Part shown: positions 510 through 5,501 of the stretch, piece by piece
How the letters are laid out: each line of letters opens with the position of its first letter
How positions within the stretch are numbered: the first letter of the stretch is position 1
Origin: a virus
Taxonomy: Duplodnaviria; Heunggongvirae; Uroviricota; Caudoviricetes
Direction: 5' to 3' (one strand)
Length of the DNA: 5,501 bases
IMG/VR virus record: IMGVR_UViG_2778261064_000016
Made by a program: the position numbers and the translations under genes
The notes under the pieces: model-generated
The model's input: the letters and a program-made list of their open reading frames with translations, nothing else
What the model was told of the DNA's origin: nothing
Database searches by the model: none

Positions 510-713
510 TTACGGTGCTGTTTTAAGTCCTGCCGGGATTTCGTTATTGTCCATGCGAATAACTTTATCAACCGGATAACAGTTGCCGGGAATTTTCTGT
601 TCCGCTGCGGCAGCCATGCATTCTTTCATTGAGTCATGTATACCAATAACAAGATCGACTGGCTCGCCTGTATTAAGAAAAACTGTCAGAACGAGTGCAA
701 ATACTGTATTCAT
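510..713 (-). CDS. small hypothetical protein, 67 aa, hydrophobic N-terminal segment (possible membrane or secreted peptide)
   Basis: ATG at 713..711 with SD AAAGGA 8 nt upstream; stop TAA at 512..510. N-terminus MNTVFALVLTVFLNTG is hydrophobic. This is the internal start of the 85-aa ORF 510..767 in the track; the start at 767 has no well-spaced SD. Confidence 0.45.
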   Translation of the reverse strand: MNTVFALVLTVFLNTGEPVDLVIGIHDSMKECMAAAAEQKIPGNCYPVDKVIRMDNNEIPAGLKTAP

Positions 714-715
714 TG

Positions 716-898
716 TCAGCGTCCTTTTTGCATCAGGCGTAAACGGGCCAGCATTGAAACAATGCATATTTGATTTAATAGCTCCCGTTCGTGTTTTCTC
801 TTATTAATGGCATCTTCAGTAAATACAGGGTTACTGATTCTGACACCAATTTCAAAACAACCTTCAGACGTATTAACGTTTGGTAATAACGTTTCCAT
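716..898 (-). CDS. small hypothetical protein, 60 aa, basic C-terminus
   Basis: ATG at 898..896 with SD GAGGA 7 nt upstream; stop at 718..716, only 2 bp before the next gene start at 713 (operon-like packing). Internal start of track ORF 716..994; the upstream extension has no RBS. Confidence 0.45.
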   Translation of the reverse strand: METLLPNVNTSEGCFEIGVRISNPVFTEDAINKRKHERELLNQICIVSMLARLRLMQKGR

Positions 899-953
899 TA
901 TCGCGTCCTCAACAATGAATTTTGTGATACGGTGCCTGGTGCCTCCAGGTGAC

Positions 954-974
954 GTTAACCAGTTAACAATTAAC
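954..974. repeat. three tandem (G)TTAAC motifs at 8-bp spacing in the leader of the leftward small-gene operon
   Basis: GTTAACCA GTTAACAA TTAACG read directly at 954-974, 56-78 bp upstream of the ATG at 898. GTTAAC is self-complementary. Function unknown. Confidence 0.4.
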
Positions 975-1087
975 GCCGGATACAGAGAACCCACCCATAA
1001 GAACCAATACGGAAGTCAACTGGCCTTTTTAACTGTTCCGCGTGCGCTGAGCCGCATTCACCGCATCACAAAATTCACTTTAAAAAG

Positions 1088-1127
1088 GGCGGGTATCACA
1101 AGGGAAAACAAAAAACGGATACCCGCC
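1088..1127 (-). terminator. strong hairpin (10-bp perfect stem, 20-nt loop) followed on the minus strand by CTTTTTAAAG; candidate tL-type terminator or structured RNA element
   Basis: GGCGGGTATC (1088-1097) pairs perfectly with GATACCCGCC (1118-1127). The minus-strand transcript would read stem-loop-stem then CUUUUUAAAGUG. The plus-strand side is followed by AAAAGG, so it is not a plus-strand terminator. Confidence 0.3.
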
Positions 1128-1401
1128 AAAAGGTAATCAACATGGGTTGTTGCAGCGGGTTTGTCACTTAAGCGTATGGTCAACCTGACAACCCGGTGCC
1201 ACTAATGGGGTAAGGATAACCCCGCCATACTTACCGCCGCGCCATTTCGCGGATTGCCACAACCGGAAGCGCACGGTCGACGAAAATTTAACGACAGGCT
1301 ATCTATAAACCAGCTACCTCGCCGTACGCTTTCGCGTTGTGTGCCTGCTTTTAACCACGTCAGGCGAGGTGGTTCCTGTTATTCCCCAACAACAAGAAAT
1401 T

Positions 1402-1409
1402 TGTATAAT
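1402..1409 (+). promoter_or_regulatory. putative extended -10 promoter (TGTATAAT) for the plus-strand cassette
   Basis: Perfect TATAAT at 1404-1409 immediately preceded by TG; no convincing -35. Lies 35-60 bp upstream of the candidate starts of the cassette gene. Confidence 0.35.
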
Positions 1410-1467
1410 CCGGATATCCCCAACAACGAGAAGAGTACTCAACGTGATAGCAGAACTGTCAGCGGCT

Positions 1468-1956
1468 ATGGCTGCGATAAAGGAGACAGCTGGTCTCGCT
1501 AAGGTTATTAATGACGCAAAAACGGATGCAGAAGTTAAAGCCGCAACTATTGAACTTCAGAACAAACTAATCACGCTTCAGGCGGAGTGCTTCTCTCTTG
1601 GCGATGCGATCCGTCTTCGTAACGAAGAGATAATGCTTCTCAAAGCAAAAATTGCAGAATTCGAAAACTTTCAGATTCAGACTGAAGGTTATGTTCTTAA
1701 CCAACTCGAATCGGGTGCTTTTGTATACTCGCAGGAGGAAACGGTGAATGGAGGCACTGTTACTATGCATCTTTGTCCAAAATGTTTTGGACAAAAGACA
1801 GTATCTATACTCCAGCCATTCCCGGTTAGCGAAGATGCGCCTTTTCATGAAAGTAAGTGTCTCCACTGTGAAAACAAGTTTCTGATGAACAAAAATCCGG
1901 ATTACATACCGCTGTCTTTTGATGAGATAGCGAGAACACTGGGCAGTAATCCGTAG
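1468..1956 (+). CDS. hypothetical protein, 162 aa: N-terminal coiled-coil-like helix plus C-terminal Cys4 (CxxC-24 aa-CxxC) zinc-ribbon-like domain; first gene of inverted cassette
   Basis: ATG at 1468, in frame within track ORF 1339..1956, stop at 1954-1956. No good SD before this ATG. An alternative GTG start at 1444 has a weak SD (GAGAAGAG, 8-nt spacer). Heptad-like stretch IELQNKLITLQAECFSLGDAIRLRNEEIMLLKAKIAEFENFQ, then CPKC...CLHC. No transmembrane segment. Family not recognised. Confidence 0.55.
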   Translation: MAAIKETAGLAKVINDAKTDAEVKAATIELQNKLITLQAECFSLGDAIRLRNEEIMLLKAKIAEFENFQIQTEGYVLNQLESGAFVYSQEETVNGGTVTMHLCPKCFGQKTVSILQPFPVSEDAPFHESKCLHCENKFLMNKNPDYIPLSFDEIARTLGSNP

Positions 1957-2023
1957 GTTATTGCTGTTGTGGATATCCAGATTGTTAAAGAACATGCCGG
2001 ATTCTTATCCGTGTCCGGTGCAC

Positions 2024-2047
2024 GACCACACGCTGTCACGTGTGGTC
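2024..2047 (+). other. perfect 9-bp-stem hairpin / palindrome between the two cassette genes
   Basis: GACCACACG (2024-2032) pairs with CGTGTGGTC (2039-2047), loop CTGTCA. Not followed by a T-run, so an attenuator, RNA processing site or protein-binding palindrome is more likely than a terminator. Contains a TGTCACG motif resembling the iteron core. Confidence 0.3.
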
Positions 2048-2082
2048 TCCATTCTCAACCAGTAACCTCAATGGAGGATAAA

Positions 2083-2268
2083 ATGTCAGACAAGTTAATT
2101 AACCCATTTACCTATCCATCTGTTGCAGCTTTGAACTTAACAGTTGAGTTAATTCGGGCTGGCAAAATGTCATCCCCTTCAGAGGCGGCCAATTCAGTTA
2201 TTACAATTCGCAATATATTGAAAGAAGAAAAACAAGCCGCTATGGAGAAGACTGATAAAGAGCAATAA
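2083..2268 (+). CDS. small hypothetical protein, 61 aa; second gene of inverted cassette
   Basis: ATG at 2083 preceded by strong SD GGAGGA (2073-2078); stop TAA at 2266-2268. Sequence MSDKLINPFTYPSVAALNLTVELIRAGKM... with a K/E-rich tail. The upstream extension to 1969 in the track has no RBS and spans the hairpin. Confidence 0.5.
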   Translation: MSDKLINPFTYPSVAALNLTVELIRAGKMSSPSEAANSVITIRNILKEEKQAAMEKTDKEQ

Positions 2269-2398
2269 AGGCTTCTCTGATTTCTTGAGCCAGTTTTTTA
2301 GCTGGCTCTACCTTTTCTGTCCCCCCGTCCAAAATGAGAGATTTCAGTGTTTCTGCGGCGATTTTCTGAGTGTCTGGAGGTAAATCTTTAAATTCCAT
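2240..2398 (-). CDS. small hypothetical protein, 52 aa
   Basis: ATG at 2398..2396 with SD GAGG 6 nt upstream; stop TAG at 2242..2240. MEFKDLPPDTQKIAAETLKSLILDGGTEKVEPAKKLAQEIREAFIALYQSSP. Below the ORF-track size cutoff; found by hand translation. Overlaps the 3' end of the convergent plus-strand gene by 29 bp. Position and size are reminiscent of the small Rac ydaF/ydaG genes, but the sequence is not recognised. Confidence 0.4.
   Translation of the reverse strand: MEFKDLPPDTQKIAAETLKSLILDGGTEKVEPAKKLAQEIREAFIALYQSSP
2287..2320 (+). terminator. candidate intrinsic terminator of the plus-strand cassette
   Basis: GAGCCAG (2287-2293) pairs with CTGGCTC (2302-2308), loop TTTTTTAG, followed by TACCTTTTCTGT. 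Starts 19 bp after the cassette stop codon. The T-run is not immediately adjacent to the stem, hence low confidence. Confidence 0.3.
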
Positions 2399-2409
2399 CG
2401 TCAACCTCA

Positions 2410-2562
2410 TCAGTCAGTGTTTCTGGCTAACCAGCGACGGGCACCATTTTCGGTTTTAAACGTTTTGCTTTTGGTATACGTCATCGCGGTAAACGTGCCG
2501 TCCTGGTTGGGGAATACTCCGCACACCAGAGATTCATTATTGCCAAGATTGAGCATATCCAT
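2410..2562 (-). CDS. small hypothetical protein, 50 aa
   Basis: ATG at 2562..2560 with SD GAGG 5 nt upstream; stop TGA at 2412..2410, 11 bp before the next gene start. MDMLNLGNNESLVCGVFPNQDGTFTAMTYTKSKTFKTENGARRWLARNTD. Found by hand translation. Confidence 0.4.
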   Translation of the reverse strand: MDMLNLGNNESLVCGVFPNQDGTFTAMTYTKSKTFKTENGARRWLARNTD

Positions 2563-2740
2563 GTTGACCTCATTTACCCTTAACGCCGGGTAGCGGAACT
2601 AAAAACCTGCTGCGCTGTTATACAAAGTGTTCCCGCCGTCATGTTCATACGCCTCGGGCTGGCTACTTAACCCCTGACCACTGCCTGGTAACTCGAAGTA
2701 TTGCCCGGCATTCTGTGGGGCGGGGTGGGTTGGTGAGTGC

Positions 2741-2770
2741 ATCATAAAACACACAAAACGTGTTAGTCAA
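2741..2770 (-). promoter_or_regulatory. PL-like sigma70 promoter for the leftward early operon
   Basis: On the minus strand: -35 TTGACT (2770..2765), 18-bp spacer, -10 TATGAT (2746..2741). Sits just downstream of the toxin-operon terminator and is overlapped by two operator-like palindromes. Confidence 0.4.
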
Positions 2771-2836: not shown

Positions 2837-3124
2837 TTAATCGTTACCAGGATATTGCTGACGAGCATGTATCACGCTAACAATTTCAATGCTTGAAGTA
2901 GCTACCCTGTATAGGATTATGTAGTTAGGGTGAGTCACGATTTCTCTCAATCCAGAAACCCGTTCGCTTGGCGGATATAGATACGGATGCTCAGATAGGG
3001 GTAGCACCGATGTTTCAATGCGTATTTTTAGTCTGCGCGCTGCCGGAGGGTTTTTCTTAGCAATGTAAGTTATAATCTGACTTAAATCATCGCGAGCAGA
3101 CGGTAACCATAAAACGGGCAGCAT
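2837..3124 (-). CDS. parE: ParE/RelE-superfamily toxin (type II TA toxin), 95 aa
   Basis: ATG at 3124..3122 overlaps the antitoxin stop (TAATG), with SD GGGAG 6 nt upstream inside the antitoxin gene. Sequence MLPVLWLPSARDDLSQIITYIAKKNPPAARRL...GLREIVTHPNYIILYRV...IEIVSVIHARQQYP shows the ParE/RelE hallmark pattern. The track ORF 2837..3247 is a 5' over-extension. Symbol is family-level; this may be parE2 of the O157 paaR2-paaA2-parE2 system. Confidence 0.85.
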   Translation of the reverse strand: MLPVLWLPSARDDLSQIITYIAKKNPPAARRLKIRIETSVLPLSEHPYLYPPSERVSGLREIVTHPNYIILYRVATSSIEIVSVIHARQQYPGND

Positions 3125-3315
3125 TACACGCTCCCGTTTTCCATGGCAATTTGATTGATGATTTTTTCCATTTTTGCCATTACTTCGTCGTGCGGTATTG
3201 CTGGTCGTGGATCTGCAAGGCTTGCTGCAACCTTGGCGCGCAACCATTCGTTGTAACTGTTTTCTTGCTCGATAGTTTCAAATTCTGAAACTATCGGCGA
3301 AAGAACTGTGCTCAT
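3124..3315 (-). CDS. cognate antitoxin, 63 aa (PaaA2/ParD-like by position)
   Basis: ATG at 3315..3313 with SD AGAGG 6 nt upstream; stop TAA at 3126..3124 overlapping the toxin ATG (translational coupling). Small acidic protein MSTVLSPIVSEFETIEQENSYNEWLRAKVAASLADPRPAIPHDEVMAKMEKIINQIAMENGSV. The 63-aa length matches what I recall for PaaA2, but the sequence is not verified. Confidence 0.75.
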   Translation of the reverse strand: MSTVLSPIVSEFETIEQENSYNEWLRAKVAASLADPRPAIPHDEVMAKMEKIINQIAMENGSV

Positions 3316-3343: not shown

Positions 3344-3742
3344 TTATGCTCGACGTCCTTTTTGGGCGGCAAGCCATCTTGCAACTGTGCGATCCATTGA
3401 TTCTTTTTTGTCTTTCATGTCTTTAAGCATTTGTTCTTGCTCCTCTTCTGGGAACGCCCCAAATGTTTGAAGCAAATCTCTCTGGCGCGGTCCTATTTTC
3501 ATTGTGTCAGGTACTACAACCTGTTCATCCTCGCTCGGAGGAAGCATGAACCAAAAAATAGGCCGAGCAGTTATTTGTGAAAGTCGATCTAAATTGTCAG
3601 GATTTGGACTAACTAAGCCAGCAGCCCATCGCTGCACTGTTTGTTGCGACACACCAACTAATTTCCCAAGCTCCGCCTGACTCCAGCCTGTTTCAGACAA
3701 GAGTTTCTTTATTCTGTATGCAGTAATCTCGAGTGTTTTCAT
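3344..3742 (-). CDS. cI-like prophage repressor, HTH (XRE-type), 132 aa, RacR/PaaR2-like; no peptidase S24 domain
   Basis: ATG at 3742..3740, stop at 3346..3344. HTH motif in GWSQAELGKLVGVSQQTVQRWAAG. No SD, but a -10-like TAGAAT lies 7 nt upstream of the ATG, suggesting a leaderless mRNA. Divergent from the cro-like gene; 28 bp upstream of the antitoxin gene on the same strand. Too short for a LexA-type autocleavage domain. Confidence 0.85.
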   Translation of the reverse strand: MKTLEITAYRIKKLLSETGWSQAELGKLVGVSQQTVQRWAAGLVSPNPDNLDRLSQITARPIFWFMLPPSEDEQVVVPDTMKIGPRQRDLLQTFGAFPEEEQEQMLKDMKDKKESMDRTVARWLAAQKGRRA

Positions 3743-4121: not shown

Positions 4122-4530
4122 GCACATCCGCATGGCGATGAATGCCTGGGCGCGTCCGGACGGTGAAAAAGTTCCGGCAGCTGAAATAACCCGGGCTTAT
4201 TTTGAGCTGGGTATGACGTTCCCGGAGCTATATGACGACAGGCATCCGGAAGCGCTGGCTCGTAATACCCAGAAAATTTTCCGCTGGCTGGATAAAGACA
4301 CCCCTGATGCGGTTAAAAAAATTCAGGCGTTGTTACCAGCTATCGAAAAAGCAATGCCGCCTCTGCTGGTGGCCAGAATGCGCAGCCACAGTTCAGCTTA
4401 TTTTCGGGAGCTGGTGGAGATGCGGGAGCGACTGGTGAGAGACGCTGATGATTTTGTCGCAGTGGCAATCGCCGGTTTCAATCAGATGAACCGTGGTGGC
4501 CCGGCAGGAAATGCTGTGGCAGTACATTGA
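4105..4530 (+). CDS. ydaT: YdaT-like protein (CII-like regulator/toxic protein of Rac-type prophages), 141 aa
   Basis: ATG at 4105 with SD GGAG (4094-4097, 7-nt spacer); overlaps the upstream stop by 17 bp (coupled). N-terminus MKIKHEHI matches my recollection of E. coli YdaT. Stop TGA at 4528-4530. Confidence 0.8.
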   Translation: MKIKHEHIRMAMNAWARPDGEKVPAAEITRAYFELGMTFPELYDDRHPEALARNTQKIFRWLDKDTPDAVKKIQALLPAIEKAMPPLLVARMRSHSSAYFRELVEMRERLVRDADDFVAVAIAGFNQMNRGGPAGNAVAVH

Positions 4531-4601: not shown

Positions 4602-5501
4602 ATGGCTAACGCCTGGCTCAGATTATGGCATGACATGCCAAATGATCCTAAGTGGCGAACAATTTCCAGGGTGTCAGGACAGCCAATCGCAACAGTGATG
4701 GCAGTGTATATCCACCTTCTGGTGAGCGCGTCACGAAATGTCACGACATGTCACGGCGTGTCACTACGTGGCCACATTGATGTCACGACGGAAGATTTAG
4801 CAAGTGCGCTTGATGTGACGGAAGAAGTAATTGATTCAATTTTACAGGCAATGCAGGGGCGGGTACTTGATGGAGATTTAATCACTGGATGGGAAAAACG
4901 CCAGGTACTGAAAGAGGACAACGGTAACGTTTCTCAAACCGCGAAATCCCCGGCAGAGCGCAAGAGAGCGCAGCGCGAGAGGGAAAAATTACGAAAACAG
5001 AATGAGGGGGGCCACGACGAGTCACGCATATGTCACGACATGTCACGACGAGTCACGACAGATAAAGATACAGATAAAGAATTAAACCCCACACATAACG
5101 CGCGCGAGAGTGCTCCGACCAGTGAGGCGAATGGTGTGCCGTTGCAGACAGCGGAACCTGATTACCAGGAAGGCCTGAGCGAACCCATCGGGAAATTTCC
5201 GATGACCGATGGCTGGCATCCGTCGCCGGATTTTCGACGACGGGCTGCGTTGTGGGGGATGGCTCTGCCAGAGCCGGAATTTACACCTGCTGAACTTGCC
5301 GCCTTTCGGGACTACTGGGCAGCGGAGGGGAAAGTTTTCTCGCAGGTTCAGTGGGAGCAGAAATTCGCCCGTCACGTAAATCACGTCAGGGCACAGGTTA
5401 AACCAGTCAGCAAGGGGGTAAACCATGCAGCAGCACCAGGTGGCACCGCATCACGGGCAGTTCAGGAAATTCGGGCAGCACGTGAGCAGTGGGAACGTGA
5501 A
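4602..5501 (+). CDS. phage replication initiation protein (O-like, YdaU/DUF1376-type N-terminus, DnaT-like C-terminal region), partial: continues beyond the right edge
   Basis: ATG at 4602 with SD AAGAGGTGA (5-nt spacer). Hand translation gives 300 codons with no stop to 5501. N-terminus MANAWLRLWHDMPNDPKWRTISRVSGQPIATVMAVYIHLLV. Iteron clusters inside the gene, as in lambda O. Follows ydaS/ydaT as in Rac. Confidence 0.8.
   Translation, partial: MANAWLRLWHDMPNDPKWRTISRVSGQPIATVMAVYIHLLVSASRNVTTCHGVSLRGHIDVTTEDLASALDVTEEVIDSILQAMQGRVLDGDLITGWEKRQVLKEDNGNVSQTAKSPAERKRAQREREKLRKQNEGGHDESRICHDMSRRVTTDKDTDKELNPTHNARESAPTSEANGVPLQTAEPDYQEGLSEPIGKFPMTDGWHPSPDFRRRAALWGMALPEPEFTPAELAAFRDYWAAEGKVFSQVQWEQKFARHVNHVRAQVKPVSKGVNHAAAPGGTASRAVQEIRAAREQWERE
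4729..4790 (+). repeat. iteron cluster 1: five copies of TGTCACGAC-like 10-bp repeats (four contiguous at exact 10-bp spacing)
   Basis: cgTCACGAAa / TGTCACGACa / TGTCACGGCg / TGTCACTACg at 4729-4768, then TGTCACGACg at 4781-4790. A DnaA-box-like TATCCAC sits at 4708-4714. Confidence 0.7.
5011..5060 (+). repeat. iteron cluster 2: five copies of (T/A)GTCACGAC at exact 10-bp spacing
   Basis: gCCACGACGa / GTCACGCATa / TGTCACGACa / TGTCACGACg / aGTCACGACa read directly. Two further degenerate copies (GTCACGtaaaTCACGtc) at 5371-5387. Confidence 0.7.
5061..5090 (+). other. AT-rich tract with short direct repeat (GATAAAGA x2) immediately after iteron cluster 2; candidate DNA-unwinding element of the origin
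   Basis: gataaagatacagataaagaattaaacccc is about 70 percent A+T, directly flanking the iterons, mirroring the lambda ori layout (iterons then AT-rich region inside the initiator gene). Confidence 0.5.

Follow-up and report, generated by a model that had tools for sequence, protein, structure and literature searches.

What occupies the structured and apparently non-coding interval at positions 995-1400 of the viral record IMGVR_UViG_2778261064_000016, a stretch of 5,501 nucleotides (nt) that represents the immunity and early region of a lambdoid prophage? The original prediction for this stretch (hereafter the window, whose coordinates are used throughout, with (+) and (-) for its strands) had offered a tL-like terminator or a small RNA (sRNA) as alternatives. 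Each proposal is correct in part, and the two describe one object: a hairpin that would act as a terminator and thereby form the 3' end of an sRNA. The structured non-coding region is real, and what had gone unrecognised is its homology to dicF and dicB. Judged by its sequence, 900-1344(-) holds the dicF locus, and the early-left operon to which it belongs is of the dicBF type and part of a lambdoid prophage of the PPompW type. This type of locus is already known, as the prophage cell-division-inhibitor operon dicBF; new is the version of the sRNA, with an altered loop and 5' tail. Our results suggest that 1082-1148(-) probably specifies a DicF-family, trans-acting and likely Hfq-dependent sRNA with a swapped seed. 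Homology, synteny, structure, covariation and the diversity and distribution of alleles are demonstrated, whereas we infer expression, processing, Hfq dependence and targets.

The identification begins with the flanks. In alignments to Escherichia coli K-12 and phage Tritos, the homologous counterpart of 900-1344(-) proved to be the ydfC-dicF-dicB interval of the K-12 Qin prophage, and both references annotate DicF at the position that aligns with a hairpin at 1088-1127. A 601-nt query spanning the locus is 100% identical to E. coli RM9088, around position 1,377,500 of NZ_CP042298, where the copy resides in a prophage beside ompW, with dicB, a DUF1482 gene, ydfB, a DUF1391 gene, relE/relB, a repressor gene, ydaT and replication genes in the RefSeq annotation. 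The hairpin is located where a dicBF-type operon places DicF, 3' of ydfABC-type genes and a leader and 5' of dicB, with ydfC itself replaced: homology to K-12 stops upstream of 1336, and a (+) strand cassette occupies the place of K-12 ydfC. Identity to K-12 is 96% over 1264-1335, 91% over 1149-1263 and 92% over 900-1081, as against 58% over 1082-1148 and 50% over the upper stem and loop (1093-1122). In the leftward direction, the RNA elements of the locus are as follows.

1264-1344, minus strand: long imperfect hairpin, homologue of the K-12 RNase III substrate (96% identity to the K-12 stem).
1149-1263, minus strand: conserved four-way-junction RNA of 115 nt, delineated by RNAalifold, covariation and a covariance-model score of 151 bits.
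1082-1148, minus strand: sRNA at the DicF position, referred to as window allele C, with the 5' tail AACCCAUGUUGAUUACCUUUU followed by the hairpin and U-tail.
1088-1127, minus strand: terminator hairpin of the sRNA and positional homologue of the K-12 DicF hairpin.
1082-1086, minus strand: U5 tract, the predicted sRNA 3' end and point of partial termination, in the context CCC-UUUUU-AAAG, the same as the K-12 DicF terminator tail.

The perfect 10-base-pair (bp) stem with a 20-nt loop that had first drawn attention to the region was recovered by direct reading and by an exact inverted-repeat scan, in which GGCGGGTATC (1088-1097) pairs without mismatch with GATACCCGCC (1118-1127). Read on the minus strand, the arms GGCGGGUAUC and GAUACCCGCC enclose the pyrimidine-rich loop CGUUUUUUGUUUUCCCUUGU, and the minimum free energy (MFE) fold adds two pairs beyond the perfect stem. 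The CUUUUUA reported to follow is present as well (C at 1087, UUUUU at 1086-1082 and A at 1081), the tail CCCUUUUUAAAG being common to K-12 DicF, so that the 10-bp stem and U5 tract have the make-up of the Rho-independent terminator of DicF. A perfect 10-bp hairpin is not in itself rare, occurring in 21 of 200 dinucleotide shuffles of the window (mean of 0.17 per shuffle), and the window contains three distinct ones. The 71-nt minus-strand RNA folds at -18.5 kcal/mol (z = -4.4), which none of 200 shuffles equalled, and the fold of a 271-nt region has a z-score of -3.4.

The candidate sRNA combines a conserved scaffold with exchanged pairing surfaces. Like K-12 DicF, it occupies the slot directly after the 91-96% identical leader and about 180 nt 5' of dicB, and it consists of a single-stranded 5' tail of about 15-20 nt, the sequence UUUGGCGG at the base of the stem, a terminator hairpin with a long loop and the terminal sequence CCGCCC-UUUUU-AAAG. 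As in K-12, the loop begins with GUUUU, and its segment GUUUUCCCUUGUGA matches K-12 GUUUUACUCCGUGA at 10 of 14 positions; by contrast, the loop spans 20 nt in the window versus 11 nt in K-12 DicF. In K-12, the 5' end of DicF pairs with xylR and the 3'/loop region with ftsZ and pykA (PMC5069750). The window sRNA differs at both surfaces: the 5' tail, which is the xylR-pairing part in K-12, is replaced, and alterations affect the upper stem and loop, the part that in K-12 pairs with ftsZ and pykA. As regards processing, the leader resembles that of K-12 throughout and the RNase III stem is present, and the surroundings of the K-12 RNase E site are replaced; by the position of that site, the mature 5' end would lie near 1142. 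Because position, scaffold and flanks all match DicF, we assign the RNA to the DicF family despite its Rfam score (see below).

How variable is this slot? A pattern scan of IMG/VR and GTDB, anchored in the conserved flanks and the leader core, returned about 190 loci in 125 distinct versions, organized in modular fashion: an RNase III-type hairpin, the conserved junction and a hypervariable terminator-hairpin sRNA. At least 15 alleles occupy the DicF position, and all of them form a G+C-rich hairpin that has U5-7 after it and the arms of which are compensated (GGCGGGUAUC/GAUACCCGCC, GGCGGCAUCAG/CUGAUGUCCGCC, GGCGGUACCAG/CUGGUACCGCC and GGUGGCA/UGCCACC, for example). Besides window allele C, the alleles named here are B and D to L (D, E, F, G, H, I, J, K and L), each with a loop of its own. 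The alleles are mosaic, allele E joining the 5' tail of the window to another hairpin and sub-variant C2 joining the window hairpin to another tail; C2 retains the stem and the loop core GUUUUCCC of the window allele. With the Rfam DicF model, allele B scored 43.5 bits, E 34.1 bits and H 30.3 bits, whereas D, F, J, K and L, along with window allele C, gave no match, the gathering score being 48 bits.

The window allele was found in 163 of 5,426 complete E. coli genomes (approximately 3%), with 82 records at 99% identity or above and 69 at 90-95%; matches of the K-12 type occurred in 3,975 of the same genomes, and allele B is at least 99% identical in 288 records, O157:H7 included. Because the window allele recurs in those 163 genomes, is combined with several different leader variants and shares its stem and loop core with C2, we conclude that it is maintained and not decaying. 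Among 50,697 phage records it appears once, in PP818812.1 (5990-6061, 94.7% identity), which is labelled 'Actinobacillus phage vB_Apl-pPE4', an unexpected host for an Escherichia-type lambdoid module. Three loci of the survey (L065, L066 and L069) come from metagenome bins labelled Bacillota, Veillonella parvula and Collinsella and contain E. coli-type or P1-type copies of the module, for which binning contamination is the most likely explanation. None of the RefSeq records listed has an annotated feature under any allele, which is uninformative, since exact K-12-type copies are likewise unannotated. The literature searched yielded nothing on natural DicF variants; the published comparative work on DicF chose copies that are more than 99% identical (PMC5069750).

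How would such an RNA be made? The flanking features that bear on this question are the following.

2741-2770, minus strand: candidate early-left promoter, putative dicBp equivalent, sigma70-like (TTGACT-18-TATGAT; 10 of 12 matches in a consensus scan).
2410-2562, minus strand: DUF1391/YdfA gene (Pfam).
899-1081, minus strand: dicF-dicB spacer and dicB 5' untranslated region (UTR), 92% identical to K-12 aside from a 14-nt insertion.
716-898, minus strand: dicB, cell-division inhibitor gene and presumptive read-through target (Pfam DicB PF05358, 127.5 bits; annotated as dicB by RefSeq in the identical RM9088 locus).
510-713, minus strand: DUF1482 gene (Pfam).

A leftward transcript would probably start at the candidate promoter, which is presumably under repressor control and, in the leftward direction, follows the repressor and relBE genes and precedes the ydfA-like gene. 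The transcript would pass through the genes resembling ydfA and ydfB and then about 800 nt antisense to the (+) strand cassette, before producing, in order, the long hairpin, the junction and an sRNA of roughly 60-67 nt. By homology to K-12, the G+C-rich hairpin and U5 tract would serve as the intrinsic terminator that creates the sRNA 3' end, and some of the polymerases would continue past it into dicB and the DUF1482 gene. In K-12, DicF is excised from the polycistronic dicBp transcript, RNase III generating a 190-nt species and RNase E a 53-nt form (PMC10448788), and the window precursor could be processed likewise, through an RNase III product of about 190 nt to a short mature sRNA. That sRNA would pair with host mRNAs through its pyrimidine-rich loop, its 5' tail or both. 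The original prediction had reasoned that a terminator at this position implies antitermination to reach the genes beyond it. A dedicated mechanism of this kind is unsupported: in K-12, terminated ydfABC-dicF and read-through ydfABC-dicFB-ydfD transcripts are both detected with no known antiterminator (PMC10448788). In common with lambda tL, as the original prediction proposed, the early-left operon has a predicted intrinsic terminator that must be passed for downstream expression. Among the early-left open reading frames (ORFs) scanned with Pfam (YdfA/DUF1391 and the ydfB-like peptide), no N-like antiterminator was found, boxA and boxB not having been searched for.

Several observations weigh against a functional DicF-family sRNA. 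The precursor must cross the roughly 800 nt antisense to the convergent cassette (1444-2268), within which Rho or transcriptional interference could stop it, and no promoter nearer to the sRNA locus than 2770-2741(-) was found. The Rfam scan, a check that the original prediction had recommended, gave no match to the DicF model (RF00039) over the whole window at E<=10, nor over 301 nt with the laxest filters, the K-12 positive control reaching 76.7 bits; the same scans returned a sub-threshold STnc100 match on the spacer and a chance match to PhrS/RF_site3. The U-tract measures only 5 nt, a few copies of the locus have lone stem-breaking substitutions, the DicF 5' seed UUUCUGGUGACG is absent from the window sRNA in the alignment, and the window loop forms with the ftsZ Shine-Dalgarno region GGAGAGAAAC a weak, wobble-rich duplex with energies no better than those of shuffles. 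Apart from those on the precursor and promoter, these points are also what would be expected if the hairpin merely terminated or attenuated transcription within the operon, as a tL-like stop ahead of dicB, and the DicF-position sequence were a decayed DicF that has no role in trans. We regard this alternative as unlikely. Decay is at odds with a perfect 10-bp stem preserved at near-identity in the 82 records, and with the occurrence of one allele on different leader backgrounds and a loop core common to C and C2. Moreover, the retention of the scaffold with covarying arms across at least 15 alleles is the pattern expected under selection for an RNA product.

The target question must be viewed against the resolution of the predictions. 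Energies of full-length RNAduplex predictions against ftsZ did not rise above those of shuffles, K-12 DicF included, so that the validated pair was not singled out, and accessibility-corrected energies (-6.0 kcal/mol for K-12 versus -5.8 kcal/mol for the window) discriminated neither between the two RNAs nor in favour of the validated K-12 pair. Unlike that of the window, the loop of allele H (L098, 5588-5638(-); 30 bits with Rfam DicF), UUUCUCUCC, is perfectly complementary over 9 nt to GGAGAGAAA in the E. coli ftsZ Shine-Dalgarno region, a match suggesting that ftsZ may recur as a target, at least for some of the alleles found at the locus. Within the window, perfect complements of 9-10 nt connect the sRNA with local transcripts, at the ydfA start, in the dicB 5' UTR and in the cassette mRNA, in numbers close to the chance expectation; they include the 5' tail segment CCAUGUUGA, which is perfectly complementary over 9 nt to the ydfA start-codon region at 2559-2567(-), and the segment AUCCGUUUUU, a 10-nt complement of the cassette mRNA at 1518-1527(+).

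Upstream of the sRNA, the leader proved to be a structured RNA in its own right. The original prediction had listed two further GC-rich hairpins, both of which are real: the GGGGT/ACCCC hairpin at 1207-1223 is exact, and the CCGCG hairpin exists with coordinates shifted by about 1 nt (CCGCG at 1237-1241, a 6-nt loop and CGCGG at 1248-1252). They are not independent elements and instead correspond to the variable arm and to helix P2 of a four-way junction. In this junction, P1 pairs GUUGUGGC (1256-1263) with GCUGCAAC (1149-1156), P2 is the CCGCG/CGCGG hairpin (1237-1252), P3 (GGU/ACC) encloses the variable hairpin with its CU-rich loop, and P4 pairs GGGUUGUCA with UGACAA(A)CCC (UGACAACCC). The invariant core reads GGCGCGGCGGUAAG.AUGGC ... 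CAGGUUGACCAU, after which comes the terminator hairpin. The stem of the variable arm covaries (CGGGG/CCCCG, CUGGGG/CUCCAG, CAGGGG/CCCCUG, CGAGG/CCUCG and CAGGUG/CACCUG), within a segment of 25-31 nt, and its loop has a CU-rich motif in the 43 versions read.

Statistical support for the fold comes from two alignments. Among 23 representatives, RNAalifold predicted 31 pairs, 9 of them with compensatory changes; these 9 pairs changed on both sides compare with 2.3 ± 1.0 in shuffles (none of 500 reached 9) and with 1-4 when the partners were slid. In an alignment of 64 distinct sequences made with a covariance model built in this analysis (model R1), 8 pairs changed on both sides versus 1.7 in shuffles and 97.6% of cells were paired, figures that lean towards the structure to which that alignment was fitted. 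Model R1 scored 151 bits at 1140-1279(-), the window itself being part of the seed alignment, with helices P1-P4 and the invariant core present. The junction matched no Rfam family in the whole-window and 301-nt scans, and no description of it was found in the literature searched. It also occurs in prophages of Citrobacter, Trabulsiella, Erwinia and Izhakiella genomes. Just 5' of the leader, Erwinia, Izhakiella and one IMG/VR locus (L072 at about 4410-4480, L073 and L111) contain the tRNA 3'-half-like sequence GGTTCAATTCCTGCCACCGC. A tRNA-like reading of the junction is unsupported, as ARAGORN detected no tRNA or tmRNA in the window or in five loci with such a sequence.

Within the K-12 pathway, the junction would be part of the processed precursor. 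Counting 190 nt back from the K-12 terminator (our own arithmetic, in L004 coordinates) reaches the 5' edge of P1, and on that reckoning the 190-nt K-12 species equals junction plus DicF. The hairpin at 1264-1344 would, by analogy, be the RNase III substrate. In the MFE fold, the 5' strand of P1 alternatively pairs with an upstream CACAAC, a pairing that would lengthen the RNase III stem, and cleavage might then free P1 to form.

The conservation of the leader raises the alternative that the junction performs the main function, as a cis element that determines read-through into dicB or other genes, for example by sensing a ligand or protein, by serving as a platform for processing or by modifying RNA polymerase in the manner of put, with the variable hairpin as its expression platform; an sRNA role would be compatible with this. 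In its favour, the junction is conserved better than the sRNA with respect to K-12 (91% versus 58%) and backed by covariation, and the terminator hairpin follows it in every allele folded or aligned, a conserved core and a variable peripheral arm followed by a terminator amounting to a riboswitch-like layout. Furthermore, the junction travels with different downstream genes: dicB in most E. coli loci, and elsewhere a gene for a 123-146-aa (amino acid) protein, an RdgC-like gene, an excisionase/integrase pair or, in the ban operon of phage P1, where it lies just past Pban, tRNA genes. Such a cis role is nonetheless rather improbable as the principal one. Neither an antiterminator pairing nor a loop-flank pseudoknot in the variable arm is conserved across alleles by eye, the candidates for pairing between the junction and the 5' arm of the terminator failing in F-type alleles; the K-12 junction is simply part of the processed 190-nt precursor; and no ligand or protein partner is indicated. 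To our knowledge, the junction has no evident resemblance to the two-hairpin put RNA of HK022.

Could the region instead code for small proteins? The original prediction of no supported ORF in 995-1400 was borne out, the only ORFs there being unsupported ones of 36-109 aa with TTG or GTG starts or in antisense positions. A 36-aa GTG ORF (1164-1274(-)) and a 41-aa TTG ORF (1058-1183(-)) do exist mechanically. Their starts are not ATG, however, and no Shine-Dalgarno sequence had been seen when they were first surveyed. The indels of relatives within the 36-aa ORF are not multiples of three (the 25-31-nt variable segment), substitutions are compensatory in helices and have no codon periodicity, and the 41-aa ORF covers the hypervariable segment. 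A coding role is accordingly very hard to credit, and a DicF-family sRNA processed from a structured leader is the reading that we retain.

A relative outside dicBF operons is the 'dicF-like region' in the ban-operon leader of phage P1, which has the junction core in common with the window, compensated helices and an intrinsic-terminator-like hairpin next to it. Unlike the window element, it lies directly 3' of the C1-controlled Pban and 5' of two tRNA genes and ban instead of dicB, and its P1-helix sequences differ (97 bits with model R1, versus 151 for the window). Some module-bearing prophages also contain a P1/P7-type immI with C4 antisense RNA (80 bits) and isrK (64-65 bits), as at L047 16-204 and L124 11478-11679. 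The prophage Pas sRNAs were considered as the identity of the locus and rejected, Pas sRNAs being located in the late region. In the dicF-dicB spacer and dicB 5' UTR, away from both hairpin and junction, a full-model alignment to STnc100 (RF02076) at 866-1089(-) scored 34.1 bits (E ~1e-4), which is below the gathering score of 47 and does not amount to membership; K-12 reaches the same score, and sub-threshold matches, of 31-36 bits overall, extend to other lambdoid loci and to P1 (L004 2933-3142 and L003 130-249).

The remainder of the window adds features around the operon. The convergent two-gene cassette (1384-2308(+)) in the place of K-12 ydfC encodes a 170-aa protein (1444-1956(+)), with a coiled-coil N-half and CxxC...CxxC in the C-half, and a 61-aa protein (2083-2268(+)), neither of which had a match in Pfam or PADLOC. 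Direct repeats CCCCAACAAC(A/G)AG at 1384-1396 and 1418-1430 lie on either side of an extended -10 (TGTATAAT, 1402-1409), and the cassette terminator (2287-2308) falls within the 3' end of the ydfB-like ORF. Possible roles for the cassette are those of a moron or an exclusion module. Between the candidate promoter and the repressor gene (3344-3742) is a toxin-antitoxin pair, RelE/ParE and RelB (2837-3315(-)). Within the replication-initiator (O/DnaT-like) gene, two clusters of 10-bp-phased TCACG-type repeats (TCACGnnnTG / GTCACGAC) at 4731-4790(+) and 5012-5060(+) look like origin iterons.

DicF is among the oldest known bacterial sRNAs and is usually handled as a single sequence. Our survey instead depicts the dicF slot as polymorphic, with the base of the terminator and the leader shared and the loops and 5' tails differing. 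Most alleles, that of the window included, either fail to reach the gathering score of Rfam DicF or go undetected, so that counts of the family based on sequence or on Rfam are too low, and differences in targets that may exist between strains and pathotypes escape them. The junction leader is a candidate new RNA family, with processing platform, stabiliser and control of read-through as possible roles. Tentatively, and with more doubt than confidence, we envision the junction and hypervariable terminator hairpin as a portable RNA module of temperate enterobacterial phages, lambdoid and P1-like, and as a new class of structured RNA, in which the junction is a processing and launch platform, or a read-through sensor, for interchangeable seed loops. 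If so, K-12 DicF would be one allele among many, the target set of the window allele would differ from ftsZ, xylR and pykA, and prophages would diversify the specificity of their host-directed sRNAs through cassette swaps at a fixed locus.

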